57,327 nucleotides of DNA from an uncultured Bacteroidota bacterium (GCA_902797625.1 CADBTU010000101.1:1-57327); one strand, 5' to 3'. Counted from the first letter of the stretch, positions 19,643 to 57,327 are shown. The notes: generated by a model not told the origin, from the sequence alone. Numbers and translations are program-made.

Positions 19643-20692
19643 TTATTTTTTCCAATCTGGGGCATCACCACGTGACGTATCTACAGTATAGCCAGTAGAT
19701 CTTATGCGGTCGGCAAGATTTTTAACATATTGGGCAGATTCTTCACCAGTGAATATTTTATTGTCGTAAATGTCGTATTTTTTTCTAACATCTACAGGAG
19801 ACAAGTTAGGCATGACAACATTAGCACCAGCAAGCAGACCTTTTTCTCTGCCTTTAGGGTCAATAGTACCGAGTGCGGTAGTGGAAGGTAGTAATGCTTT
19901 GGGCAATATAAGTCGTAAAAGACCGAGCATAAAAAGAGTTTGTTCAACAGTTCCGCTATTTTTTTCAGCAAAAGGGGTTGCGTGATGAGGTATAAAAGGA
20001 CCGATTCCCACCATTTGAGGTTGAAAAACTGCAATAAACAAGAGGTCTTCAGCCAAATTGTTTACAGTTTGAAAAGGAGAGCCAACCATAAAACCTGTTC
20101 CAACTTGAAAACCGATATTTTTAAGATCTTTTAAGCAATTGATCCTGTGTTCATAAGACATCCAATTTGGATGTAATTGTTCATAATGATGTGGATTTGC
20201 TGTTTCGTGGCGTAAAAGGTATCTATCTGCACCAGCATTAAAAAGATTTTGATAGCTTTCGTGCGAGCGTTCACCGAGAGAGAGAGTTACGGCACAATCA
20301 GGATATTTTGATTTTATTTTTTTTATGATGCTAATAAGAACATCATCTTTAAAATAAGCGTCTTCTCCGCCTTGCATAACAAAAGTTCTGAATCCGAGTG
20401 AATATCCTTCATCACAACATATTAGAATGTCTTCTTCAGAAAGTCTGTATCTATCTGTGTTTTTATTACTTCTTCTAATGCCACAATAGAAACAGTCATT
20501 AGAGCAGAAGTTAGAAATCTCAATCAATCCACGCAGAAAAACCGATTTTCCGAAATATTTTTCTCTAACGGAGCGCGCCCTTTGGAATAAAAATTCGGTA
20601 TCATCAGGGGAGTGATTTTCAATAAGATCAACAAACTCCTCTTTATTAAGAATATTATTGTTTTCTAATTTTGTTATAAGTTTTCTCATCAT
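19643..20692 (-). CDS. hydE: [FeFe]-hydrogenase H-cluster radical SAM maturase HydE
   Basis: LRGLIEISNFCSNDCFYCGIR, RYLLRHETA, GIGPFIPHHATP, GANVVMPNLSP, YDIYDNK. Start is ATG 20692 or 20689. Confidence 0.9.
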   Translation of the reverse strand: MMRKLITKLENNNILNKEEFVDLIENHSPDDTEFLFQRARSVREKYFGKSVFLRGLIEISNFCSNDCFYCGIRRSNKNTDRYRLSEEDILICCDEGYSLGFRTFVMQGGEDAYFKDDVLISIIKKIKSKYPDCAVTLSLGERSHESYQNLFNAGADRYLLRHETANPHHYEQLHPNWMSYEHRINCLKDLKNIGFQVGTGFMVGSPFQTVNNLAEDLLFIAVFQPQMVGIGPFIPHHATPFAEKNSGTVEQTLFMLGLLRLILPKALLPSTTALGTIDPKGREKGLLAGANVVMPNLSPVDVRKKYDIYDNKIFTGEESAQYVKNLADRIRSTGYTVDTSRGDAPDWKK

Positions 20693-20708
20693 TAGCAATT
20701 AAGGGGTG

Positions 20709-25299: not shown

Positions 25300-26088
25300 T
25301 TATCCGTTAATTCTTCTGTCTAATTCTTGGGCGATATAAGATGCGACGTCATCAGCATAGGTATTAGCACCGAATCCTGCATCATAGCCTAATTCTTTAG
25401 CTAGTTCGTGAGTGATACGTGGGCCGCCGCACACAACAATCATTTTATCGCGTAAACCTTCTGCTTCAAGCATCTCAATAAGTTCTGTTAGATTTTGAAT
25501 GTGTACATCTTTTTGAGTAACAGTTTGAGAAACCAACAGGGCATCAGCATTAAGTTCAACAGCTTTTGCTATAAATTCTTCGTTGGGAATTTGGCTGCCC
25601 ATATTTAGAGCATCAAAATATTCATAGCGTTCTATGCCATAATGTCCAGCGTAGCCTTTCATATTCATAATAGCGTCTATGCCAACAGTGTGAGCGTCAG
25701 TTCCAGTGCTGGCACCAATAACTACAATATGTCGGCCAATATGTTCGCGTATAAAATCGTCGGTTTCTTGCATTGACCATACAGTAGATTCTACTTTAGG
25801 GACATGTATTGAAGAAAAATCTACGGTGTGAGTGCAGGAGCCGTAGCAATTTACGAAAGTGAAACCTTCTGTTAATTCTTTAAAATAAACAACTTGTGGG
25901 TTATCGAGACCCATTTTTTTAAGAAGTTGTTTTGCAGCTTCAACAGCTTCATCACCACAAGGAACAGGCAAGGTGAAACTAAGTTGAATTTTACCATCGT
26001 TCATTGTATCGCCATAAGGCTTTACACGTGTCAAGTCTAAAGTCTGATCAAAGTCCTTTTGATCCATTGAATATAATCCGCCACTCAT
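25300..26088 (-). CDS. kamE: Lysine 5,6-aminomutase beta subunit (B12/PLP)
   Basis: VKPYGDTMNDG, DAHTVG (DxHxxG cobalamin motif), IMNMKG PLP lysine. Confidence 0.95.
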   Translation of the reverse strand: MSGGLYSMDQKDFDQTLDLTRVKPYGDTMNDGKIQLSFTLPVPCGDEAVEAAKQLLKKMGLDNPQVVYFKELTEGFTFVNCYGSCTHTVDFSSIHVPKVESTVWSMQETDDFIREHIGRHIVVIGASTGTDAHTVGIDAIMNMKGYAGHYGIERYEYFDALNMGSQIPNEEFIAKAVELNADALLVSQTVTQKDVHIQNLTELIEMLEAEGLRDKMIVVCGGPRITHELAKELGYDAGFGANTYADDVASYIAQELDRRING

Positions 26089-26136
26089 AATTTTCTGTTT
26101 ATTAAAGTGTTATAAAATGTTGTTAAAGAAAGATAA

Positions 26137-27696
26137 TTATAATCTATCTTTCATCATTTGAATGAATGGGTTGAAATAATATTCACCCTTTGAAACCACG
26201 CCAGATAGACCTTTACCGCCATCTTTTGGACGTTTAACATCACCGAAGATACCTTTTTCAAGAGCGGTAAAAAGACCCTCATTCACAATATCTTGTAGCA
26301 ACTCAATAGCGTTATTTAGCACAGTTTTAGCGCGTTCGCGACAAATACCTCCTTCGCGAAATTCCATTTCTTCGCCGATGCTTCTCATATCGTTGAAAAT
26401 ATAGCGGGCATTTTCAATTGAAAGGTAGCGGTCGCTCATAAAAGGAGTATGAATTGCTTCGGTAGGCATTCCCAGAAGTTGAATACCTTGATTAGTCCAA
26501 ATACCAATGATATTAAAAAGTGCATCTTGAATGTGTCCTCTGAATATATTGCCAGTCATGAATTTTGTTGGAGGCATATATTTAAGGGTGGCTTTTGGAA
26601 AAATTTCTCGAGTCATTTGAGCTTGAGCTAATTCCAGTAGAAATCCATTTTCTAAAGAAGGATCCATTTCAAAGGCGTGTCCTAAGCCCATTTGTTCTTC
26701 TGGAAGCCCAGCCAGCAATGCTAATTGTTCATTGATAAGGTCTGAAGCGAGTACAGTGTGAGCAGCATCTACCGCATCAGCTGTGGTTAGGTAATTATCT
26801 TCGCCAGTGTTGATAATAACACCAGCGTAGCCATTGATAACTCTTGAGAAATATTGGTCGATTAGAGTACGCTGCGGGTTTATATCACGGAAAAGAATGC
26901 CATAAAGAGCATCGTTAAGCATAACATCGAGACGTTCTAATGCACCCATTGCTGCAATTTCTGGCATACAAAGACCAGAACAATAGTTGCAAAGTCTAAT
27001 GTAGCGCCCTACCTCTTCACCAACTTCATCAAGAGCTTTTCTCATTATACGGAAGTTTTCCTGAGTTGCAAAAGTTCCACCGAATCCTTCTGTAGTGGCT
27101 CCGTAAGGAACATAGTCAAGAAGACTCTGTCCCGTTGTGCGTATAACTGCGATAACATCAGCACCCTGACGTGCTCCAGCTTGTGCTTGTATAACATCTT
27201 CATAAATGTTTCCTGTAGCAACAATTATATAGAGATAAGGTTTTGGACCTTCACCGATGGTGTTAAGGTACTCATTACGTTTAGCAACGTTGCCTTTGAT
27301 TCTTGTGAGACATTGTTCTACAAGTGGAATAACAGCAGCTTCAACATCTTTAATAGGGTGAAGAGCCACAGACTTGACGTCGAGATCGTTATTTGCGATA
27401 CGTTGTGCAATATCTTGTGGGTTAGTGCCGAATTCTAATAAGGCGTTTCCCATAAAATAGAGAACACCTTGATTTAGAAGACCAGCTTCTAACAACGCGT
27501 CAACTACGCGGTTTGGCAAAGGTACACCGTTTTCGTCAACATCATCAATGCCTATCAAGCGGCATAAAGTTCGCTCAACCGTTACAGTTGTGTATCCATC
27601 AACAAACTCTTGTACTTGATCTGCAATTTCTTTTGCCAATTGTTTGGCTACTGCAACTTGTGAAAAATCTAATCCGAGTTTGGATTTTTGTGTCAT
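26137..27696 (-). CDS. kamD: Lysine 5,6-aminomutase alpha subunit
   Basis: TTVTVER, VATGNIYED, AVIRTTGQSLLDYVPYG, NYCSGLCMPE, KYMPPTK. Confidence 0.95.
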   Translation of the reverse strand: MTQKSKLGLDFSQVAVAKQLAKEIADQVQEFVDGYTTVTVERTLCRLIGIDDVDENGVPLPNRVVDALLEAGLLNQGVLYFMGNALLEFGTNPQDIAQRIANNDLDVKSVALHPIKDVEAAVIPLVEQCLTRIKGNVAKRNEYLNTIGEGPKPYLYIIVATGNIYEDVIQAQAGARQGADVIAVIRTTGQSLLDYVPYGATTEGFGGTFATQENFRIMRKALDEVGEEVGRYIRLCNYCSGLCMPEIAAMGALERLDVMLNDALYGILFRDINPQRTLIDQYFSRVINGYAGVIINTGEDNYLTTADAVDAAHTVLASDLINEQLALLAGLPEEQMGLGHAFEMDPSLENGFLLELAQAQMTREIFPKATLKYMPPTKFMTGNIFRGHIQDALFNIIGIWTNQGIQLLGMPTEAIHTPFMSDRYLSIENARYIFNDMRSIGEEMEFREGGICRERAKTVLNNAIELLQDIVNEGLFTALEKGIFGDVKRPKDGGKGLSGVVSKGEYYFNPFIQMMKDRL

Positions 27697-32067: not shown

Positions 32068-33525
32068 TTAGATGTTTCCGATTTTCATTTTTTTGTCGAT
32101 GTCCGCGATATATTGTTTCATACTTTTATCGGTATCATTCAGGTTGCTGATAGTTCTACAAGCGTGAAGAACTGTAGCATGGTCTTTATTACCGCAGTAT
32201 GCACCTATAACAGAGAGCGGAAGTTGAGTATATTTTTTAGCAAAAAACATACTTATTTGGCGAATTTGGACTATTTCGCGTTTCCGAGTTTTAGCATTAA
32301 TTGCATCAACTGAGACACCAAAATAGTCGCATACAATTTTTTGGATATATTCAATAGAGATTTCTTTAGCAGTAGATTTTACATATTTATCAACCATTTC
32401 TCTGGCGAGGTCGAGGTTTATATCGCGATGATTTAGAGAAGCTTGTGCAAGAATAGCAATCATTGCACCCTCAAGTTCACGAGTATTAGCAGTAATTCTA
32501 AGAGCTAAGTAGTCGATAACTTCTTTAGAAAACTCAATTCCGTTATTTTCTAATTTTTTAGTAATGATAGCTGTACGAGTTTCAAGGTCAGGCACTTGCA
32601 AATCGGTGGCTAAGCCCCATTTAAAACGATTGAGGAGTCGCGGTTCAAACCCAGAAATATCAACAGGAGACTTATCGGAAGTCATAATAATTTGTTTTTT
32701 ATGTTGATGTAAATGGTTGAATATCAAGAAAAATGCTTCCTGTGTTTTGGTTTTAGAGCCAGAAATAAATTGAATATCATCAATAATTAGCATATCTACG
32801 GCTTGGTAAAACCAGAAGAAGTCGTTGAGGTTGTCGCTTTTAACGGCTTCAAGATATTGTTGATAGAAAGTGTCTGCACTGACGTAAAGAACAATTTTAT
32901 CGGGGAAATTGATTTTAGTTTGAATACCTATAGCGTTCACGAGGTGAGTTTTTCCTAATCCTACATCAGAATAGATGAACAGCGGGTTAAAGGCTGTTTG
33001 TCCAGGTGCTTTAGAGATAGCGATGCCAGCAGCACAAGCAAGTCTATTACAATCGCCAATTACGTAGTTGTCGAAGGTTAAAGTTTCAGATAGATTAGAG
33101 GCGATGCGTTGTTTTTTTATTCCAGGAACCACTTGAGGATTAGGAATATCTTTTCTTTCCATAGATATTACATCCATAGGTGGCATCATAAGAGGGTTTT
33201 TAACAGCTTTGCGAGAGGTTGATGGAATGAGCATAGAGGAAGATTTTTCTGGCGATTTACCACGTTCCATAAGAACTTTGTAGCGAAGTTTCGCACCATT
33301 GCCCAACAATTTACGTATCGATGTGCGTAGCAAGGATACATATTGTTCTTCCAATATTTCCTTATACCATAGGCTTGGGAGCTCTAAGGTAAGTTGTTTA
33401 TCATCTAATGATACAGCACTGATAGGTTGAAATATAGTTTCATAAACTTCAGGTGCTACATTATCTCGTATTATATCTAAACATTTGTTCCAAGTCTCAA
33501 TGTGCAAAGGTACTTCTTCTTTCAT
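32068..33525 (-). CDS. dnaA: Chromosomal replication initiator DnaA
   Basis: FNPLFIY..VGLGKTHL, IIDDIQF, RFKWGL, RELEGA, KDHATVLHA. Confidence 0.97.
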   Translation of the reverse strand: MKEEVPLHIETWNKCLDIIRDNVAPEVYETIFQPISAVSLDDKQLTLELPSLWYKEILEEQYVSLLRTSIRKLLGNGAKLRYKVLMERGKSPEKSSSMLIPSTSRKAVKNPLMMPPMDVISMERKDIPNPQVVPGIKKQRIASNLSETLTFDNYVIGDCNRLACAAGIAISKAPGQTAFNPLFIYSDVGLGKTHLVNAIGIQTKINFPDKIVLYVSADTFYQQYLEAVKSDNLNDFFWFYQAVDMLIIDDIQFISGSKTKTQEAFFLIFNHLHQHKKQIIMTSDKSPVDISGFEPRLLNRFKWGLATDLQVPDLETRTAIITKKLENNGIEFSKEVIDYLALRITANTRELEGAMIAILAQASLNHRDINLDLAREMVDKYVKSTAKEISIEYIQKIVCDYFGVSVDAINAKTRKREIVQIRQISMFFAKKYTQLPLSVIGAYCGNKDHATVLHACRTISNLNDTDKSMKQYIADIDKKMKIGNI

Positions 33526-35698: not shown

Positions 35699-37111
35699 TT
35701 AAAAACCGAAAGAGTTTCCGTCGAAACAATGAGTGCAAATGCGTTCTTTTGAGAGTCCAATTGCAGCGGCAATTACGTCTAAAGTATTGAATTTAAGAGA
35801 GTGAACGCCAAGATGTTTACGAATAATTTCAACCATTTGGGCATATTGTTTAGTGGAGTTATCGAGGTATAGATGTAAATTTTTTTCATTATTGCCTTCA
35901 AGTTCATTTATCACGCGGCGTGTTATAAGTTCCATTTCAGTTTTTGAGGCTGAGAAATTCAAAAAATGGCAACCATAGAGTAGAGGTGGGCAACTAATTC
36001 TGATGTGAACTTCTTTAGCACCGTATTCGTACATTTTTTTTACGTTGTCGCGAAGTTGAGTTCCTCGAACAATAGAGTCGTCGCAGAATACTACGCTTTT
36101 TCCTTGCAGGAGAGCTTTATTAGGTAGGAGTTTCATTTTAGCGACGTGTTCGCGCATATTTTGGTTTGCTGGCATAAAGCTTCTTGACCAAGTAGGAGTA
36201 TATTTTACAATACCTCTTTGGTAAGGAATTCCTTTACCTGTTGCGTAGCCTAAAGCCATTCCGATTCCTGAATCTGGAATAGCTGATACAAAATCAGCCT
36301 CAACATCATCGGTCTTACCCATTTCAAAACCGCATCTATAGCGGGTTTCTTCAACATTGATACCTTCATAGTTAACGGATGGATAGCCGTAGTAAATCCA
36401 CAAAAACGAGCAGGCTTGCATTTTTTCATTAGGCTGGCAGAGTTGTGTGATATTATTGGGCGTAATTTCAAGAATTTCACCTGGTCCGACAAATTTTTCT
36501 GTCTGATAGTCCAAATTTGCAAAACTATGACTTTCAGATACCGCAACGAAACCATCGTTATTTTTCCCAATAACAATAGGAGTTCTTCCGAGAAAATCGC
36601 GGGCAACGATAAGACTATGGTCAGTGAGAATTAAGATTGAGCAAGAACCTTTTATTTTAGCAAAGACATCTTTTATACCATCTGCAAAAGTTTTACCTCG
36701 CGTAATAATGAGGGCAATAAGTTCTGTTTGGTTAGTAGTTCCTGAGCTGAGTTCTGTGAATTGCTGATTATTATCGAGGCACTCCTTTTCTAACTCTTTG
36801 ATGTTGTTTATTTTAGCAACTGTAGATATTGCAAATCTACCAAGATGAGAGTTTACAACAATAGGTTGTGCATCAGTATCGCTAATTACTCCAATGCCAG
36901 AGTTACCTTCAAATTTACCTAAGTCATCTCCAAATTTTGTTCTAAAATAAGAATTCTCAATATTGTGAATTGACCTGCGAAACATATCTTTTTCTTGGTT
37001 GAAAGTTACCAAACCAGCTCTTTTTGTGCCAAGGTGAGAATGATAATCAACACCATAAAACAAGTCTGAAATGCAAGGTTTCTTTGAAATAATACCGAAA
37101 AATCCGCCCAT
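35699..37111 (-). CDS. purF: Amidophosphoribosyltransferase, Fe-S type, lacking the N-terminal Cys
   Basis: IPDSG, KYTPTWSRSF, DDSIVRGTQ PRPP loop; four Fe-S cysteines (ACSF, YGCH, CTHC). Confidence 0.92.
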   Translation of the reverse strand: MGGFFGIISKKPCISDLFYGVDYHSHLGTKRAGLVTFNQEKDMFRRSIHNIENSYFRTKFGDDLGKFEGNSGIGVISDTDAQPIVVNSHLGRFAISTVAKINNIKELEKECLDNNQQFTELSSGTTNQTELIALIITRGKTFADGIKDVFAKIKGSCSILILTDHSLIVARDFLGRTPIVIGKNNDGFVAVSESHSFANLDYQTEKFVGPGEILEITPNNITQLCQPNEKMQACSFLWIYYGYPSVNYEGINVEETRYRCGFEMGKTDDVEADFVSAIPDSGIGMALGYATGKGIPYQRGIVKYTPTWSRSFMPANQNMREHVAKMKLLPNKALLQGKSVVFCDDSIVRGTQLRDNVKKMYEYGAKEVHIRISCPPLLYGCHFLNFSASKTEMELITRRVINELEGNNEKNLHLYLDNSTKQYAQMVEIIRKHLGVHSLKFNTLDVIAAAIGLSKERICTHCFDGNSFGF

Positions 37112-37248: not shown

Positions 37249-38355
37249 TTAAGATAGTTTTACAATTTCAGAATAGATTAAATCTATAGCATCGGGTTTG
37301 GCGAATTTTTTTATATTTTCAGATAGGATAGACATCAGACTATTGTTATTAGCAAGTTTCAAAAGTTCAGGAATAAGTTTTTCTGGTGCATCTTTATCGT
37401 TTATTAGTAGGGCAGCGTCTTTAGAAGACAGAGCCTTGGCGTTGAAAGTTTGGTGATCTTCAGCTGCGAAAGGGAAAGGAACCAAGATAGTGGGTAAACC
37501 TACAATAGCCAATTCAGACAGGGCAATAGCACCAGCGCGAGAGATTATAATATCAGCAATTCCGTAGGCGTCGTTCATATTTTTGATAAAGGGAACAATT
37601 TTTATATTATCGTCTTGTTCATTGAGAAGTTTTTGGTCAATATTAGAATAGAATTGTTCGCCAGTTTGCCATAATAATTGAAGGTCAGCATCTCTAAATA
37701 CTTGTAGATTAGCGGCCAAAGTGTTATTAAGAGTACGAGCGCCTAAACTACCACCAATAACTAAAACTGTTTTCTTTTCAGGAGATAAGCCGAAGAACTT
37801 GTAAGAGTTTTCAGATTTTCGTTGCAGTTGTAGAATTTCAGAGCGAATAGGATTACCAGTTTTAACTATTTTTTCTTTAGGGAAATATTTTTCCAAGCCA
37901 TCGTAGGCAACGCAAATAACATCAGCATCTTTACAGAGCATTTTATTAGTTACTCCAGGGTAGGAGTTTTGTTCTTGCAGCATAGTAGGAATTTTCAGTT
38001 GAGTGGCGGCTGTCAGGGCAGGACCGCTAACAAAACCGCCCACACCAATTACGAGGTCAGGGTTAAAATTCCGAATGATATTTTTAGCTTTGCGCATAGC
38101 CTTTAGCATAACAAAGGGAAGTCGAAGGTTGCATAGCATACCATTTAATGAAAATTCTCTACTAATGCCGTAAATTTCAAGTCCTTCGATTTTAAATCCT
38201 GCGTCTGGAATACGTTTCATTTCCATCTTGTTTTCAGCACCGATGAATAGTATTTCAGCTTCAGGATTCTCTTTTTTTATTTTGTTAGCGATGGCAAGTG
38301 CTGGAAAAATATGTCCTCCAGTGCCACCGCCGCTGATTATGTACTTTTTTTTCAT
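37249..38355 (-). CDS. murG: Lipid I GlcNAc transferase MurG
   Basis: GGGTGGHIFPA, EQNS.PG.TN, TGNPIR, GGSLGA, SRAGA, DHQ..NA. Confidence 0.97.
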   Translation of the reverse strand: MKKKYIISGGGTGGHIFPALAIANKIKKENPEAEILFIGAENKMEMKRIPDAGFKIEGLEIYGISREFSLNGMLCNLRLPFVMLKAMRKAKNIIRNFNPDLVIGVGGFVSGPALTAATQLKIPTMLQEQNSYPGVTNKMLCKDADVICVAYDGLEKYFPKEKIVKTGNPIRSEILQLQRKSENSYKFFGLSPEKKTVLVIGGSLGARTLNNTLAANLQVFRDADLQLLWQTGEQFYSNIDQKLLNEQDDNIKIVPFIKNMNDAYGIADIIISRAGAIALSELAIVGLPTILVPFPFAAEDHQTFNAKALSSKDAALLINDKDAPEKLIPELLKLANNNSLMSILSENIKKFAKPDAIDLIYSEIVKLS

Positions 38356-38392: not shown

Positions 38393-40027
38393 TTATTCAA
38401 AGTTCATTATAGTTCTATTAGAGGGGTTATAGCCCAATTTTTTCACAAGATTTCTTTCAAATTCAACTTTATTAGTAAATTTATTAATGTTTTTATTCTC
38501 TTTTTGCGACCAAACGCATTCAGATAAGGCGAAAAGACGTGGAAGTAACATATATTCTGCTTGTTCTGGGGTATTTATAAATTCTGTCCAGAGGTTACAT
38601 TGTGCACCGAGTATATGTTTTTGTTGAGAGTCGCAGAGGCTATCAGGCATAGGTTCAAAGGAGTAAGCTTTTCCAAGAGAAACGTAGCCCTCCATACATA
38701 GAGGTTCATCAGCATCTTTGCATTGATAATAGTTGTAATAACAATGCGTTGTAGGGCACATAATCACATCATTGCCATGTCTCGCGGCGGTGCGAGCTGC
38801 TTTTGGGCCTTGCCAGCACATCATAGTGGAAGTGTTAACCATATCTTCTGAAACTATGTCATCCCAGATGATAGCTTTTTTGTTAAGAGTGCTGAGGTGT
38901 TTTTCAATTTGGTTCATTAACCATTGTTGAAGTTCAAATTCATCAGCGAGTTTTTTGTCTTCAATACGTTTTTGACATTTAGGACAAACCTGCCAATTGT
39001 CGTTAAAAGCTTCATCTCCTCCGATATGTATATATTCATAGGGAAACAATTCAGCAACTTCATCAAGTACATCTTTATAGAATGTTAAGATGTCGTCGTT
39101 ACCTGCGCACATAATGGCTTTAGGAGGCCAATAAGGACCAACAGCTACTGTATAGGGGTAGTTATCGCACGCAAATTGAGGATATGCTGCAAGGATAGCG
39201 CTACAGTGTCCAGGAATTTCGATTTCAGGAATAATATCAATATTGCGAGCAGCAGCATATTTGATAATATCGCGAACTTGATCTTTTGTGTAAAATCCAC
39301 CATAAGTCATCGGTTCGTCGGACAAAACAGGATGAAGGGTGTCCCAAGAAGTTCGTTCTGGGCGCCATGCACCAATAGATGTAAGACGAGGATATTTGTC
39401 TATTTGGATGCGCCACCCATGATCATCTGTTAGATGCCAATGAAATTTGTTAAGTTTGTAGAAAGCTAAGATATCTATATATTTTTTAACAAAAGCGGTA
39501 TCAAAAAAGTGTCGAGATACATCTAAGTGAGCACCGCGATATGAAAATCTGGGATAATCGGTGATATTAGCACAAGGAATTCGATAAGTGTTAGCACCAG
39601 CAATTTTATCTTCTCCAGCCATCTGCAAAAGTGTTTGAAAACCATATAAACAACCGATTCCTGTGTTCGCTTCTATGATAATTCGTTTTGATTTTACAGT
39701 GATAGTATAGCCCTCATCGCCCAATTCTTTAGATTTTTTCTCTTTAATAGTTAGTAAGATAGAGTTTTTACCCGCACTTTCTTCATCGCCTAAATTAGGA
39801 CGCAAGTTAAAATAGTGTTCATAAGAATCTCTGATAAGTTTTGTTAATTCTGGATTTTCATCATTAATGTTGCCGAAGCATAACAAGGTATTCTCGTCAA
39901 TTTTAAAATATCCACATTTTTGCTCAATTTTTACTGGTTCTGGAACAATTACAATAGGAAGTGTTTTTTGACATCCGCAAAATAAAAGAGCAGTAGCTAA
40001 CAAAATAATTGTAAAAAATTTATTCAT
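38393..40027 (-). CDS. GH20 beta-N-acetylhexosaminidase (lipoprotein)
   Basis: DYPRFSYRG.HLDVSRHF, HWHLTDD, PEIEIPGH, HIGGDE; lipobox LLFCGC. Confidence 0.93.
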   Translation of the reverse strand: MNKFFTIILLATALLFCGCQKTLPIVIVPEPVKIEQKCGYFKIDENTLLCFGNINDENPELTKLIRDSYEHYFNLRPNLGDEESAGKNSILLTIKEKKSKELGDEGYTITVKSKRIIIEANTGIGCLYGFQTLLQMAGEDKIAGANTYRIPCANITDYPRFSYRGAHLDVSRHFFDTAFVKKYIDILAFYKLNKFHWHLTDDHGWRIQIDKYPRLTSIGAWRPERTSWDTLHPVLSDEPMTYGGFYTKDQVRDIIKYAAARNIDIIPEIEIPGHCSAILAAYPQFACDNYPYTVAVGPYWPPKAIMCAGNDDILTFYKDVLDEVAELFPYEYIHIGGDEAFNDNWQVCPKCQKRIEDKKLADEFELQQWLMNQIEKHLSTLNKKAIIWDDIVSEDMVNTSTMMCWQGPKAARTAARHGNDVIMCPTTHCYYNYYQCKDADEPLCMEGYVSLGKAYSFEPMPDSLCDSQQKHILGAQCNLWTEFINTPEQAEYMLLPRLFALSECVWSQKENKNINKFTNKVEFERNLVKKLGYNPSNRTIMNFE

Positions 40028-52554: not shown

Positions 52555-54480
52555 CTATTCGTCGCTCAAATTGAGCCATTCAGTCTCTTTTTCTTCAATC
52601 TTATTTTTAACAGATTGATATTCTTGATATAATAATCCAGAAGCAATATCGTCAGCATTATTTTCAGGGTCGGCAAGACGAGCTTCTAATGTGTTTAATT
52701 TTTCCTGAAGAATTAAAATCTCATCTTCTATTTTTTTTAGTTTGTTTTTTCTTTTTCTATCTTCAGCGTCGCGTTGTTTTTTCTCTTCCCATTGTTCTTT
52801 ATTAGAATTTTTAATTGTAGTTTGTTTTTTTTCTGCAATATTTCTACCAGAAAGAACGTTAAGAGATTCAATTTTTCTTTGATTAAGAAAGTTATAAACA
52901 TCACCTGAGAAAGGATTTATCTTATGTTCTTTAAATTCATAGACTTTAGAGGTCAATCCTTGCAGGAAATCACGATCATGTGAAACCAAAATCAAGCTTC
53001 CTTCATATTGTAGAAGTGCGTTTTTTAGAACATCTTTTGAGGGCATATCGAGGTGATTTGTAGGCTCATCAAGAATCAGAAGATTAAAAGGAGATAGTAG
53101 AAGTTTAGCAATAGCAAGACGCGCTTTTTCACCGCCCGAAAGAACTTTCACTTTCTTTTCAGTGTCTTCCGTATCAAATAAAAAGCTTCCCAACATAGTT
53201 CTAATCTTAGGTCGAATATCGCCTACAGCGACGTCATCAATAGTTTCAAAGACAGTTTTTTCTGGGTTTAGTAATTGGGCTTGATTTTGGGCGTAGTAGC
53301 CAGACACAACGTTGTGTCCCAATGAAATATAACCATTTTCAGGTATTAGGGAGCCTACAATTGCTTTAACCATCGTTGATTTTCCCTCTCCGTTGCGTCC
53401 CACAAAAGCAACGCGCTCACCTCTTTCTAATCGAAACTCTATATTATTTAGCACGTTGGGTTTAGATTCATACCCCAAAGAGAGCTCTTTAGCTTCAACC
53501 ACAACTAAGCCAGAATGTGGTGCGGGAGGAAATTTAAAAGAGATTGCGGAGTTATCATAATCATCAACTTCAACACGGTCCATCTTTTCGAGCATCTTTA
53601 TTCTACTTTGAACCTGAGCAGATTTTGTAGCTTTATATCTAAATCTTTCAATAAAACGTTCTATACGTGCGATTTCTTTTTGTTGGTTTGCGTATGCAGA
53701 TTGTTGGTTTTCAATACGTTCGAGTCGTTGTTCTACGTATTGAGAATAACTACATTTGTAATCCTGAATACTTCCTAAAGTTATTTCAATAGTTCTGTTT
53801 GTAACTTTGTCTAAGAAAGCTCTGTCGTGAGATACTAAAATAACACATCCGTCGTAAGTTGCCAAATAATCTTCTAACCATTGAATAGATTCAATATCCA
53901 AGTGGTTTGTTGGTTCGTCGAGTAAAATGATTTCTGGTTTTTGAAGAAGGATTTTAGCAAGGCAGACGCGCATTTGCCAACCGTTGCTAAATTCAGACAT
54001 ATTCTTGAAAAATTCATCTCTAAGAAACCCCATACCAAGTAAAACTTTCTCAGTATCAGCCTCTTTTGAACTGCCTCCTAAATTCACGTAATTATCATTC
54101 AAGTCTGATATTTTTTGAGTCAGTTTAGAGTATTCTTCAGAATGATAATCGTCTCTATTAGAGAGTTCGGTGGTTAATTTTGATATTTCAGTTTCAATAC
54201 TATTAAGTTCTTTGAAGGCCGACAAAGCCTCGTCCCAAACAGTAAGTTGTGATGTGCCAGCAAGCTCCTGAGGTAGGTATCCGATACGGTACCCCGAAGT
54301 AATTACCATAGAGCCAGAAGCTGGTTCAAGATCGCGATTTATAATTTTCAACAAAGTTGATTTTCCCGCCCCATTATGCCCTACAAGTCCAATTCTATCT
54401 CTATCTCCGACCGTAAAAGAGACATCTTTAAATAGAAAATCTCCAGTAAAATTGACTGAAAGTTTGTTGATTTGAATCAT
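52555..54480 (-). CDS. ABC-F family ATPase
   Basis: Two NBDs (GHNGAGKST; GRNGEGKST), LLDEPTNHLD twice, inter-NBD linker, C-terminal coiled coil, no TM helices. Confidence 0.95.
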   Translation of the reverse strand: MIQINKLSVNFTGDFLFKDVSFTVGDRDRIGLVGHNGAGKSTLLKIINRDLEPASGSMVITSGYRIGYLPQELAGTSQLTVWDEALSAFKELNSIETEISKLTTELSNRDDYHSEEYSKLTQKISDLNDNYVNLGGSSKEADTEKVLLGMGFLRDEFFKNMSEFSNGWQMRVCLAKILLQKPEIILLDEPTNHLDIESIQWLEDYLATYDGCVILVSHDRAFLDKVTNRTIEITLGSIQDYKCSYSQYVEQRLERIENQQSAYANQQKEIARIERFIERFRYKATKSAQVQSRIKMLEKMDRVEVDDYDNSAISFKFPPAPHSGLVVVEAKELSLGYESKPNVLNNIEFRLERGERVAFVGRNGEGKSTMVKAIVGSLIPENGYISLGHNVVSGYYAQNQAQLLNPEKTVFETIDDVAVGDIRPKIRTMLGSFLFDTEDTEKKVKVLSGGEKARLAIAKLLLSPFNLLILDEPTNHLDMPSKDVLKNALLQYEGSLILVSHDRDFLQGLTSKVYEFKEHKINPFSGDVYNFLNQRKIESLNVLSGRNIAEKKQTTIKNSNKEQWEEKKQRDAEDRKRKNKLKKIEDEILILQEKLNTLEARLADPENNADDIASGLLYQEYQSVKNKIEEKETEWLNLSDE

Positions 54481-54495: not shown

Positions 54496-55692
54496 TTATA
54501 TAGTAGTTTTCATTATATTTATTGGTTTTTCAGATAATTCATCACTTTTAGATATTTTAGCGATATTAAGGAGTATTCCCATAGCGCATCCTGATACAAA
54601 AAGGGATGAACCTCCGCTGCTTATGAATGGTAATGTTTGTCCTGTTGCGGGTAGTAATTCGCAATTCACCCCAATATGTACAAAAGCTTGAGCGGTAAAC
54701 CAAAAACCTATTCCAAAAGCTAAAAGTCTTCCATAAAACCCCTTAGAGTTTTTTGCTATATTCCATGCACGGTAGAAGATGATCAAGTATGAAAATATTA
54801 TCAAAACGCCTACAACTATACCTGTTTCTTCAAACATAGAGGCGAAAGCATAGTCTGTTTCTTTTTCAGGGAGTCTGTTTTTAATAACTCCATTGCCAGG
54901 TCCAGCGGGGTGTAATCCAGAGCGGGCGATGGCGGTTCGCGCCAGAATCATCTGATCTCCATATCCATCTGTATTATCGTTAGTTATGAAATACTCCCAT
55001 CTGTTTATGAATGTTGCTATTCGTCCAATATTAGCTTTTTTGTTTTCGCTCATATTAGCCACAATAATTACAACAATAAGTAGTAAACCAACCACAATTG
55101 AGACCATCTTACACACCTCTTTTAATTTTGTTCCTCCTATAAATAGGATAGCTATTCCTGTTATAAAAAGAATAATTGATGTTGACATGTTAAGCAATGC
55201 TATGCAGAGGCAAAATAGACATAGAACGCCATACATTATCCAAGCTGTTCTATTGTCAAGTTCAAAATCAAAGTCCTCACACATATAGTTTAACGGTCGT
55301 TCTTCTCTCTTCTTTTTCTCATATTTTCTTCCGATGAAGTAAGACATAAACATAATGAGAATAAAACCTATAAGGTAGAAAGTTTGAACATCTCTTCCCA
55401 TAAGAGAGATACCGCGTGTTGTTTGAGAAGTAAGGGTTGTTATCAGCAGAAATCCCGCCACTAATATAAGTACAGGAGAAAATCCGCCAATAAATTTGTA
55501 ATTTATTTGATAGCATATAAACATCCCTATATATGCGAAAAGAAGATGTTTAAGATGTTGTAGTACCACGGTGCCGCGCATACTATAAACCATCAAAATC
55601 GACAATCCTGTTAGAAACAAAACAACTATTGGGATTATCTTATCAGACTTAAAAAATATTTTTCGTGTTGTGATATTATTATCGTTGTCCAT
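54496..55692 (-). CDS. ftsW: FtsW/RodA/SpoVE (SEDS) protein in the ftsW position, divergent
   Basis: GPG.G, LPE..TDYAF...EE.G, QAFVH..V, P.TGQTLPFIS.GGSS; dcw position. N-terminal SEDS motifs are degenerate. Confidence 0.85.
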   Translation of the reverse strand: MDNDNNITTRKIFFKSDKIIPIVVLFLTGLSILMVYSMRGTVVLQHLKHLLFAYIGMFICYQINYKFIGGFSPVLILVAGFLLITTLTSQTTRGISLMGRDVQTFYLIGFILIMFMSYFIGRKYEKKKREERPLNYMCEDFDFELDNRTAWIMYGVLCLFCLCIALLNMSTSIILFITGIAILFIGGTKLKEVCKMVSIVVGLLLIVVIIVANMSENKKANIGRIATFINRWEYFITNDNTDGYGDQMILARTAIARSGLHPAGPGNGVIKNRLPEKETDYAFASMFEETGIVVGVLIIFSYLIIFYRAWNIAKNSKGFYGRLLAFGIGFWFTAQAFVHIGVNCELLPATGQTLPFISSGGSSLFVSGCAMGILLNIAKISKSDELSEKPINIMKTTI

Positions 55693-55695
55693 AAA

Positions 55696-56253
55696 CTATA
55701 ATTGTGCAACGGCAGCCTTGAACATATTGCCACGTTCTCTGTATGTTATGTTGCTATCTCCGTGTACGCCAGGGGTATAGAGAACAACGTCATCTTTTTT
55801 ACAAGCATAGAAAGCATAATTTACAGCATCTTCCATACTCATTTGCATAACAACAGGAATTTCTTTAATAGCCAATTTCTGGAATACATCTAAATTGTAA
55901 ACACCTTGAAGTACTACAGCCTTAACTTTTTTTGCAACTTCAGCCATAATGTCGTCGGTGAGTGTTTCAGGGTTGTCAATATTAGTAATCCAGATGGTTG
56001 GTTTATTCATTGTTTGCAAAGAATACCATACTGCATTGGCATTTGTAGAACGGGCATCGTTAATGAAAGTTACACCTGAAAAAGTTTTCACAACCTCCAA
56101 TTTATGAGCACTTCCTTCAAAGTCGGAGAGTGATTCTGCAATGTTTTTTTGACGAAGTTTAATAAGTGATTCTGAAAGGGTACCAACGCGTGGACCTGAT
56201 ACTTCTTTCTCTTGTTCAAACAATCTGAAACTATTGGTTTTTTTAATAGGCAT
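55696..56253 (-). CDS. Truncated MurD-like protein (C-terminal domain only, degenerate)
   Basis: SLSDFEG.AHKLE.V, FINDARSTN.N.VWY.L, MEDAV, VLYTP, Y.ERG..FK..V align by eye to the MurD C-terminal part; lies between mraY and ftsW. Confidence 0.8.
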   Translation of the reverse strand: MPIKKTNSFRLFEQEKEVSGPRVGTLSESLIKLRQKNIAESLSDFEGSAHKLEVVKTFSGVTFINDARSTNANAVWYSLQTMNKPTIWITNIDNPETLTDDIMAEVAKKVKAVVLQGVYNLDVFQKLAIKEIPVVMQMSMEDAVNYAFYACKKDDVVLYTPGVHGDSNITYRERGNMFKAAVAQL

Positions 56254-56293
56254 AATGGTTTTGGTTTTAATTTTAATTTATAATAGGTTTTGG

Positions 56294-57327
56294 TTATCTG
56301 ATTTTTAATGTAACAAGTGTTAATACAGCTAAAAGCATACTAACAATTATGAATCTTTGTACTATTGTAGATTCGTGATGTCCTTTCTTTTGGAAATGAT
56401 GATGTAGAGGAGACATAAGTAATACGCGTTTTCCTTCGCCATATTTTTTCTTAGTAAATTTGAAATATGAAACTTGTACAATCACTGATAATGATTGAGC
56501 TAAATATACGCCACATAGAATAGGAATAAGAAGTTCTTTTCGTATAATAATGCAAGATACAGCAATTATTCCACCGAGTGTGAGACTACCAGTATCGCCC
56601 ATAAACACTTTTGCTGGATAGCAATTCCACCAGTAAAAACCTATACAGGCGCCGATTACAGCAGATATGAAAATAGCTAATTCTCCAGAATTTGGTATAT
56701 ACATGATATTCAGGTAATCAGCAAAAACAACGTTACCAGACACATAAGCCAACAATGCAATTCCAACTGCCATAGGAGCGGTTGTTCCAGTTGCCAAACC
56801 ATCTAATCCATCAGTTAGATTTGCACCATTAGAAACTGCTGCGATAATGAATACAATCAAAGGTATGAATAGTAAGAATGACCATTTTCCTGTTTTATCA
56901 CCAAAATAACGAGTAAGGAAAGAGTAATCTAGTTCATGATTTTTAACAAACGGAATAGTCGTTTTTGAAGAATGGTGAGGTTTATCAAATATTTTAGGTG
57001 CATTAGAATTTTCTTGATTTCCAAATTGCAGGAGATCGTTAGACGAAGCTGTAGAATATACAGTAGGATGTTTGCTAACTTTTTCGCAGATGACAACATT
57101 TGGATGAAAATACATTGCACTTCCCACAACGAGTCCAAGAACAATCTGTCCAATCAATTTTTTCTTGGGAGAGAGTCCTTCTTTATTTTTCTTAAAGATT
57201 TTGATGTAATCGTCGATGAATCCCAAGATACCCAACCATATAGTAGTAAACAGCATCAAAAGAACATAAATATTGCGCATATCGCAAAGCAAGAGTGCAG
57301 GGATTAAAATAGATGCTATTATAATAA
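56294..57327 (-). CDS. mraY: Phospho-MurNAc-pentapeptide transferase MraY (5' end beyond the window)
   Basis: GFIDDY, NGANLTDGLDGL, FMGDTGSL, PLHHHF; frame stays open to the window edge (IIIASILIPALL). Confidence 0.97.
   Translation of the reverse strand, partial: IIIASILIPALLLCDMRNIYVLLMLFTTIWLGILGFIDDYIKIFKKNKEGLSPKKKLIGQIVLGLVVGSAMYFHPNVVICEKVSKHPTVYSTASSNDLLQFGNQENSNAPKIFDKPHHSSKTTIPFVKNHELDYSFLTRYFGDKTGKWSFLLFIPLIVFIIAAVSNGANLTDGLDGLATGTTAPMAVGIALLAYVSGNVVFADYLNIMYIPNSGELAIFISAVIGACIGFYWWNCYPAKVFMGDTGSLTLGGIIAVSCIIIRKELLIPILCGVYLAQSLSVIVQVSYFKFTKKKYGEGKRVLLMSPLHHHFQKKGHHESTIVQRFIIVSMLLAVLTLVTLKIR

Follow-up and report, generated by a model that had tools for sequence, protein, structure and literature searches.

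The locus described here raises a concrete question: which gene adds D-glutamate in bacteria whose murD slot no longer holds a complete MurD, and what is the protein found there instead? MurD, an essential and near-universal enzyme encoded in single copy, is also a drug target. In the window (the whole stretch of DNA that was analysed, 57,327 nucleotides from an uncultured Bacteroidota bacterium; GCA_902797625.1 CADBTU010000101.1:1-57327), the slot is occupied by a short murD (55696..56253, minus strand) with an ATG start and an uninterrupted reading frame of 185 aa, covering the end of the central domain and the whole C-terminal domain (domain 3). The mraY gene lies directly upstream (56294..57327, minus strand; TIGR00445, 285 bits against a cut-off of 192), its 5′ end cut by the window edge, and is separated from short murD by an A-rich spacer of 40 bp (56254..56293, minus strand; 22 A and no G in 40) that holds no murD remnant. 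Downstream, the short murD stop is followed after 3 bp by the ATG (55692) of an ftsW-like SEDS gene (54496..55692, minus strand; PF01098, 147 bits; TIGR02614, 181 bits against a cut-off of 337.5), and then by an ABC-F ATPase gene (52555..54480, minus strand). The position between mraY and ftsW is thus the one expected of murD.

Several features of this arrangement had been noted in a sequence-only reading of the same DNA: the uninterrupted 185-aa ORF with its ATG, the 40 bp with an A-rich initiation region between the mraY stop and that ATG, the 3 bp before ftsW, and the lack of any remnant of the N-terminal and central ATPase domains. The first three agree with the ORF listing, the translation, the base counts, and the coordinates; the fourth is borne out by a tblastn search of the 57-kb window with N-terminal or central MurD sequence, which returned no matches, and by a six-frame HMM scan of the window. 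No other Mur ligase was found in the rest of the 57 kb, where murG is present (37249..38355; 309 bits against a cut-off of 250). No terminator was detected between mraY, short murD, ftsW, and the ABC-F gene, in a promoter and terminator scan whose counts equalled the shuffle expectation and which is uninformative for Bacteroidota promoters.

Comparison with family models places the window protein at the end of MurD and nowhere else. Residues 31–183 match positions 287–440 of the 441 in the NCBIfam murD model TIGR01087 (E 4e-25, 88.8 bits), and no other part of the three-domain architecture is covered. The curated cut-off of this model, 211.95 bits, is missed by the window protein as well as by its relatives L001 (86.1) and L024 (115.6). 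The P-loop is also missing, the short ORF beginning about 150 residues past that motif; the roles of the P-loop and of the three MurD domains are described in the part of the published account drawn on here (PMC4816537). The Pfam domain Mur_ligase_C (PF02875) scores 24.6 bits on the window protein, just short of the gathering threshold of 28.4. A precomputed Mur_ligase_C domain is present on a few family members (P0071, P0077, P0092, P0095), and its frequency among members of the nearest ESM Atlas clusters is 97%, 24%, and 82%. When PDB sequences were compared with a profile built from the short family, 3lk7 matched at E 9e-18, with homology over the last ~165 residues.

The sequence-only reading had also assigned the protein a new N-terminus of about 39 aa. 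This is refuted by a colinear alignment with canonical MurD, obtained by running an HMM built from 28 full-length Bacteroidota MurD sequences (447 positions) on 48 short sequences. Residues 25–185 of the window protein correspond to profile positions 286–447 of 447, and all 48 short sequences align to the profile end, starting between profile positions 257 and 286 at residues 4 to 25 (medians 280 and 18), with relatives of the window protein starting at residues 4–23. Canonical MurD has a conserved internal methionine at position 266 of 447, and residue 1 of the short forms falls a few positions away; the canonical pattern MSI..L.L.G.HN.YNSMAA is colinear with M.T.K.N.F.LFE...NPMVATL in the short forms. 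Because the offset is constant across the short forms, residue 1 lies near the internal methionine and the ORF is colinear throughout, without a foreign N-terminus. Only the N-terminal ~12–24 residues are too diverged to align; they stand where canonical MurD has the final strand and helix of its central domain. Codons 1–22 (56188..56253, minus strand) would accordingly be the diverged counterpart of the last central-domain beta-strand and the GxHNxYN adenine motif. The structure prediction for these codons is of low confidence (pLDDT 42–48), their mean entropy is 1.84 bits, and the G, H, N, and Y of the motif are lost, each being kept in at most 15% of 45 short forms.

Structural modeling supports the assignment of the remainder. 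An AF2 model based on a 112-row alignment reached a mean pLDDT of 82, with values above 90 in most 10-residue blocks of residues 51–185 (one block at 77) and low confidence for residues 1–48. Foldseek ranks 1–33 in the PDB were all MurD chains (E 1e-9 to 2e-6), the best matches being 7ti7 and 7sy9 (E ~1e-9, TMq 0.61–0.66). The short murD product is therefore predicted to fold still as Mur-ligase domain 3. A complex prediction of MraY, FtsW, and the short protein, using the L001 versions, gave scores of 0.00 and 0.00 against a mark of 0.32 and bears neither way on binding.

The short form is not peculiar to the window genome. In the protein database, 154 clusters are related to the window protein at E<=1e-3; among the 120 relatives listed, 112 are of 181–187 aa and 119 have a Met start, with identity to the window protein down to 45%. 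A genome scan restricted to one genome per species, from which 80 loci were kept, gives a lower bound of at least 47 species with the short form in addition to the window genome. Loci L001–L047 contain a homologous ORF of 175–192 aa in 46 cases, the exception (L020) being cut by a contig end; from L048 onward the loci mostly carry an ordinary murD of 445–521 aa with 35–40% identity. The short-form genomes are Bacteroidales and Lentimicrobiaceae MAGs, many of them from the rumen, omasum, or abomasum of goat, yak, sheep, and water buffalo, and from reindeer.

Gene order is equally consistent. The mraY gene is directly upstream in all 47 loci with upstream sequence (46 plus L074, a related truncated form discussed below), at a gap of 1–246 bp (median 27), and of the 43 loci in which ftsW was detected, 39 have it no more than 100 bp downstream. 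Since the same junction occurs in 47 independent assemblies, misassembly is ruled out. The sequence-only reading had proposed looking for recurrence of the short form between mraY and ftsW, and had held that full-length murD at this position in close relatives would count against it; 46 further species and L074 carry the short form there. Two loci, L024 and L025, have no ftsW within 10 kb downstream and retain short murD all the same. In nearly all canonical loci that extend far enough, and in L074, ftsW is followed by murG, murC, ftsQ, ftsA, and ftsZ; these five genes are absent from the 10 kb downstream in L001–L047. In L048, murG and murC are displaced by ~4 kb.

The motifs of 45 short forms were compared with those of 30 full-length Bacteroidota MurD sequences, with E. 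coli residue numbers transferred to alignment columns by a mapping partly inferred from the motifs. The window motifs had previously been given as HKLE, DARSTN, TNIDNP, and TPGVHGDS, and the translation reads the same. The hinge, canonically HRLE, is HKLE (56095..56106, minus strand), with the arginine “handle” changed to lysine; HKLE or HKLQ occurs in 41 of 45 short forms versus HRLE or HRME in 30 of 30 full-length sequences, and at the residue itself lysine is found in 43 of 45 versus arginine in 30 of 30, such that the hinge arginine typical of MurD is lost. In the material consulted from PMC4816537, this residue (Arg302) is the “handle” that contacts the ADP alpha-phosphate. The canonical loop DSKATN reads DARSTN (56041..56058, minus strand), with the aspartate kept and lysine changed to arginine; across the short family NDSKATN becomes (N/D)D(S/A)RSTN, D66 is present in 45 of 45 sequences, and the lysine column holds R in 40, S in 4, and C in 1. 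Further out in the family, several members have A, G, or H at this lysine position. A compensatory swap between the two sites (Arg to Lys at the hinge, Lys to Arg in DSKATN), which would have implied a live nucleotide site, was considered and dropped on account of these A, G, or H residues at the second position.

Further departures lie on the D-glutamate side of the site. The loop TNIDNPETLT (55957..55986, minus strand) replaces the invariant GG.DKGNDY loop, which holds the Lys348 equivalent: GG occurs in none of the 45 short forms, K or R at the aligned lysine column in 4 of 45, and the entropy of this loop is 1.81 bits in the short family versus 0.23 in canonical MurD. Similarly, the loop TPGVHGDSNITYRERG (55729..55776, minus strand) replaces the invariant SPACASFDLF.NYEDRG, which becomes SPG....…TYRERG in the short family; ACASFDLF is lost and Y171, R174, and G175 are kept, with an entropy over residues 160–170 of 1.76 bits in short forms versus 0.06 in canonical MurD. 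These two loops are invariant in 26–30 of 30 canonical MurD sequences and among the most variable regions of the short family. In those portions of PMC8788868 used here, Lys348, Ala414, and Leu416 are placed near D-Glu and Lys319 near ADP; the D-Glu-site residues expected of a MurD (the Lys348 equivalent and the Ala414/Leu416 region) are lost from the short family.

Conservation in the short family is instead concentrated elsewhere. The loop LQGVYN (55894..55911, minus strand; canonical CLG.DN) is (L/I)QGVYN across the family, and its Tyr119 is present in 45 of 45 short forms versus Asp in 26 of 30 canonical sequences; the entropy of residues 117–120 is 0.39 bits in the short family versus 0.73 in canonical MurD, and that of helix 140–150 is 0.71 versus 1.28. 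The surfaces fixed in the family comprise the loop D-x-R-S-T-N..N, the QGVYN loop, helix 140–150, and a C-terminal helix ending in AQL. Across 45 short sequences 22 columns are invariant, and the core that is kept includes R34, F45, H50, L52, E53, F63, D66, N73, W76, M82, P85, and I89, followed by KVK109–111, G117, A143, V144, L158, P161, Y171, R174, G175, F178, and L185. Of the results, this entropy profile says the most: with constraint gone from the D-Glu site and taken up by other surfaces, it marks a domain whose function has changed to a binding type, rather than an amino-acid-binding ligase subunit. Whether conservation peaks over the entire face of the former active site was also considered, and the idea was abandoned, since by entropy two of the four loops on that face rank with the most variable regions. 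The core family does keep Asp66, Asn73, and a basic residue at positions 51 and 68, so that a site of an anion- or nucleotide-related kind may have survived.

Estimates of selection are in keeping with a maintained protein. For ten pairs with dS<1, Nei–Gojobori dN/dS values for short murD ranged from 0.016 to 0.097, compared with 0.032–0.104 for murE, 0.014–0.075 for mraY, 0.027–0.156 for ftsW, and 0.026–0.080 for ftsI in the same pairs; short murD is as constrained as murE, mraY, and ftsW. Relative to MurE in the same genomes, however, the short protein evolves at 1.6x versus 0.72x for the equivalent part of canonical MurD, so that constraint is partly relaxed, though still strong. The short forms are pseudoenzymes in the operational sense of the word, homologs that lack catalytic residues or domains and are under purifying selection, with the loss of activity itself presumed from the residues and domains that are missing.

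The truncation can also be placed historically. A concatenated MurE and MraY tree of 69 loci, independent of the short protein, unites the 42 short-form genomes in one clade (SH-aLRT 100), with L074 as sister and a split from the full-length genomes at 99. Grouping of the short forms with L074 on this tree means that one change explains the truncation, and we conclude that a single ancient 5′ deletion took place in the ancestor of this Bacteroidales clade. The domain's own tree agrees, with 53 short rows forming one clade at 99 and the L074 type as sister at 91; its stems, at 0.78 and 0.92 changes per site, are long enough to make long-branch effects possible. The proposal in the sequence-only reading that the slot holds a maintained, degenerate C-terminal domain rather than a product of random decay is upheld by the fixed length, by the single clade on the MurE and MraY tree, and by the dN/dS values, which are below one as that reading had anticipated and far from the neutral evolution that would have spoken against it.

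If the remnant does not add D-glutamate, some other enzyme must be sought. The loci encode MraY, FtsW, and FtsI, the window encodes MurG, and the MurE of the relatives scores as a normal meso-DAP-adding enzyme (601–608 bits against a cut-off of 373), a result that speaks against a changed residue at position 2 of the stem peptide. With MurE, MraY, MurG, FtsW, and FtsI intact, the pathway needs D-Glu addition. Six-frame HMM scanning of the window together with 48 loci (878,006 bases) identified no N-terminal or central MurD sequence, nor did tblastn; the 18 weak matches of the scan all fell inside murE. At E<=1e-3, none of 769 candidates of 325–2000 aa in the protein database proved to be a fused or longer version of the short protein, which is weak evidence. 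Querying the protein database for stand-alone N-terminal MurD with residues 1–230 of the L065 MurD returned 5498 matches, of which the 120 listed were mostly fragments; match end positions were roughly flat between 225 and 400, with an approximately two-fold excess at 235–249. Among the stand-alone N-terminal candidates is P0328, of 242 aa, whose cluster has 99 members on 19 contigs. In the ESM Atlas, the N-terminal 285 residues of canonical MurD retrieved clusters of 260–287 aa without Mur_ligase_C, possibly gene fragments, including a Bacteroidota cluster of 197 members (representative 276 aa) with MurD_N and Mur_ligase_M and without Mur_ligase_C.

On balance, we favor the reading that the short protein is a maintained, non-catalytic derivative of MurD domain 3 that acts by binding, and that D-Glu ligation is carried out by an enzyme encoded elsewhere. 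The 5′ deletion dates to the ancestor of a Bacteroidales clade with Lentimicrobiaceae and numerous rumen lineages among its members. It removed murD codons 1 to ~262, which specify the domain that binds UDP-MurNAc, the ATPase domain with its P-loop, and the larger part of the central domain, and it left a reading frame that opens, just past mraY, at or near the internal Met conserved in canonical MurD. Also gone are the hinge Arg, the adenine motif, the SPACASFD loop, and the GG.DKGNDY loop, whose Lys pairs with D-Glu; the sequence in place of both loops now drifts freely. The resulting protein, presumably made from the mraY–ftsW transcription unit, would be unable to add D-glutamate alone and most likely stands outside catalysis altogether. 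It may bind a protein of precursor synthesis or of the division machinery, or a small ligand, and so serve as an adaptor or regulator; the candidate binding surface consists of loop 66–73, QGVYN, helix 140–150, and the C-terminal helix. The sequence-only reading had put forward a ligand sensor or a scaffold partner of MraY/FtsW as candidate roles. Mur ligase contacts with MurG and MreB have been reported in other bacteria, according to the part of PMC4816537 referred to here, which by analogy makes a retained docking role conceivable. D-Glu addition would then fall to another gene of the same genome, a second full-length murD being the simplest candidate. Some observations count against this explanation. 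HR(L/M)E, NDSK, and GG survive in the sister form, which is just as truncated; a domain wholly without catalysis would hardly be expected to keep them, and there is a hint here that the fragment, at least initially, went on working with a nucleotide or substrate. The residues kept at positions 51, 66, 68, and 73 in the core family and the faster evolution of the short form relative to MurE are further points of this kind.

The alternative that survives best, though we think it unlikely, is a split MurD: a D-Glu ligase encoded by two genes, with the 185-aa protein as its C-terminal subunit. The break falls inside the central domain at a conserved Met, and the short protein carries that domain's last strand and helix; its diverged N-terminal strand might complete the central-domain sheet. 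The motifs kept by the sister form hold this idea alive at a modest level, as do Asp66 and the basic residues 51 and 68 in the core family, and a D-Glu ligase is needed by the pathway when none is visible near the cluster. Split genes usually remain neighbors, however, and neither the 57-kb window nor any of 48 loci, searched to 10 kb on each side, yielded an N-terminal or central piece. The Atlas cluster of 197 members, with MurD_N and Mur_ligase_M and no Mur_ligase_C, has the architecture of the required partner, but may equally consist of gene fragments, and the stand-alone N-terminal matches in the protein database are likewise mostly fragments, with roughly flat end positions and a weak excess at 235–249. 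On the short piece itself, moreover, the adenine motif GxHNxYN is degenerate, the Lys319 position is A, G, or H in more distant members, and both D-Glu-site loops now rank with the least conserved stretches of the family.

Less likely still is the possibility that the clade is without the canonical D-glutamate-adding enzyme and that the 185-aa remnant is an obligatory non-catalytic subunit or adaptor at the MraY/FtsW step. The premise by itself, that canonical MurD is altogether absent from the clade, also strikes us as improbable, and slightly more so. The short form is the sole MurD-like sequence in the 878 kb around the cluster, the selection acting on it is strong and comparable to that on essential enzymes, and a literature search of listings and abstracts, with subscription journals outside its scope, gave no description of the short form. 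Against this, a second murD copy elsewhere is the simpler assumption, and the substrate-side loops are unconstrained and thus unsuited to a specificity subunit.

A decaying remnant without protein function, whose frame is preserved only by DNA-level effects (translational coupling or ftsW signals, for instance), is very improbable. Its end 3 bp before ftsW and a rate ~2.2x that of the same part of canonical MurD relative to MurE are the features such a remnant might have, but dN/dS values of 0.016–0.097 contradict it, as do the length of 181–187 aa in 112 of the 120 relatives listed, the 22 invariant columns across 45 sequences, and the retention of short murD in the two loci without ftsW within 10 kb downstream. 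An assembly or gene-calling artefact, that is, a frameshifted or chimeric murD, is scarcely credible: such cases do exist, both in L050, where a normal murD is frameshifted into two ORFs of which the second has 182 aa, and in many 181–182-aa database proteins with fully canonical motifs that begin at the same internal Met, but in the window and 47 assemblies mraY ends 1–246 bp before the start, which leaves no room for the ~780 bp of murD, and the short family is set apart by motifs of its own and by its grouping in a single clade.

Set beside canonical MurD, the short form shares the domain-3 fold, the core residues, and the dcw place between mraY and ftsW; it differs in lacking the hinge Arg, the adenine motif, and the GG.DKGNDY and SPACASFD loops, whose positions are unconstrained. 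By architecture, P-loop, model score, hinge Arg, and D-Glu residues it falls outside MurD, though its descent from MurD domain 3 is unmistakable, and from its sequence it would be a clade-wide, MurD-derived pseudoenzyme. One source annotates the 185-aa proteins as “UDP-N-acetylmuramoylalanine--D-glutamate ligase”; this name is an annotation trap, as pathway reconstructions would score the step as present. A close relative is the L074 type of short MurD (L074, P0145, and P0196; 181–202 aa), which has the same truncation point, the same slot after mraY, and the C-terminal IAQL, and is sister to the core short family on both trees. Unlike the core family, it keeps HR(L/M)E, NDSK, and GG and passes Pfam Mur_ligase_C (37.7–39.6 bits), and in L074 the dcw cluster is still complete, with murG, murC, ftsQ, ftsA, and ftsZ downstream. 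Gene-call fragments of ordinary murD resemble the short form in their internal-Met start and their 181–182 aa, but keep every canonical motif, begin past a frameshift or contig end, and have the missing part just upstream, as in L050.

Among other Mur-ligase relatives, MurT, of the MurT/GatD lipid II isoglutaminyl synthase, docks its partner enzyme through its C-terminal domain; it lacks the N-terminal domain, keeps the ATPase central domain, and is catalytic. As a Mur-ligase derivative that likewise lacks the N-terminal domain, it may offer a precedent by analogy for a binding role, but short murD has no ATPase central domain, and the ORF had no MurT/DUF1727 match at E<=1 in NCBIfam or Pfam. 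MurD2 is a known departure from the textbook D-Glu step and, unlike short murD, a full-length three-domain ligase; its distribution as listed in the portion of PMC8788868 drawn on here covers Gamma- and Alphaproteobacteria and rare actinobacteria, not Bacteroidota. A search of literature listings and abstracts, with subscription journals outside its scope, found no description of a truncated, split, or pseudo-enzyme MurD. Relative to these systems, the short form would represent a natural and ancient example of a Mur-ligase domain turned non-catalytic, and possibly a new accessory factor of precursor synthesis or division in Bacteroidota: where other bacteria encode the three-domain ligase, this clade carries only the last MurD domain in the canonical dcw slot, kept as strictly as its essential neighbors.

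Across the clade that carries the short murD, the dcw cluster breaks off after ftsW, both in the window and in the downstream regions of the clade loci L001-L047, where no murC, ftsQ, ftsA or ftsZ lies within 10 kb. In the window, murG (37249..38355, minus strand) lies 18 kb away and is adjoined by a GH20 hexosaminidase gene (38393..40027) and a purF-like glutamine amidotransferase gene (35699..37111). The complete dcw cluster is still present in L074, the locus with the equally truncated sister form. Elsewhere in the window, at 19643..20698, 25300..27696 and 32068..33525, all on the minus strand, are hydE, encoding an [FeFe]-hydrogenase maturase, both lysine 5,6-aminomutase subunits and dnaA; this gene content fits an anaerobic, amino-acid-fermenting Bacteroidales genome.

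Many of the 185-186-aa proteins of the short family bear the jgi name "UDP-N-acetylmuramoylalanine--D-glutamate ligase", and automatic pathway reconstructions would therefore count the MurD step as present; one is a "hypothetical protein" in an NCBI record. The true short family can also be confused with C-terminal pieces of ordinary murD, which make up many of the 181-182-aa database "proteins" among P0130-P0268 (e.g., P0131, P0133, P0150, P0156, and P0183). These pieces keep every canonical motif and start at the same conserved internal Met; they have the appearance of gene calls made on murD copies that were frameshifted or cut. The 242-aa protein P0328, whose cluster gathers 99 sequences from 19 contigs of up to 65 kb, has the MurD N-terminal and central domains and stops just past a "YPFA" stretch, near position 239 in the canonical enzyme. 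P0328 might represent a genuine truncated or split MurD, or else a frameshift that recurs; nothing connected it with the short-murD clade.

The records of two further loci, L050 (CAVXOV010000031.1) and L058 (CAJCJB010000144.1), are titled Candidatus Saccharibacteria. Both are probably mis-binned contigs, because they group closely with L048, a locus from a Bacteroidetes MAG, on the trees, and because murD of L050, which a frameshift divides into two ORFs, shares 98.8% identity with the L048 gene over its N-terminal part.

The ftsW-like gene adjoining the short murD (54496..55692, minus strand; counterparts at L001:10571-11728 and in other loci) is atypical, with the window copy scoring 181 bits with TIGR02614 against a cut-off of 337.5. 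The aspartate of the FtsW "TDYAFAS" stretch is invariant throughout the short-murD clade. FtsW of this clade lacks three stretches, of 12, 5, and 8 aa, through deletion and is altered at 17 residues that 29 canonical Bacteroidota FtsW hold invariant; by comparison, MraY of the same clade shows 0 indels and 10 changes of invariant residues.
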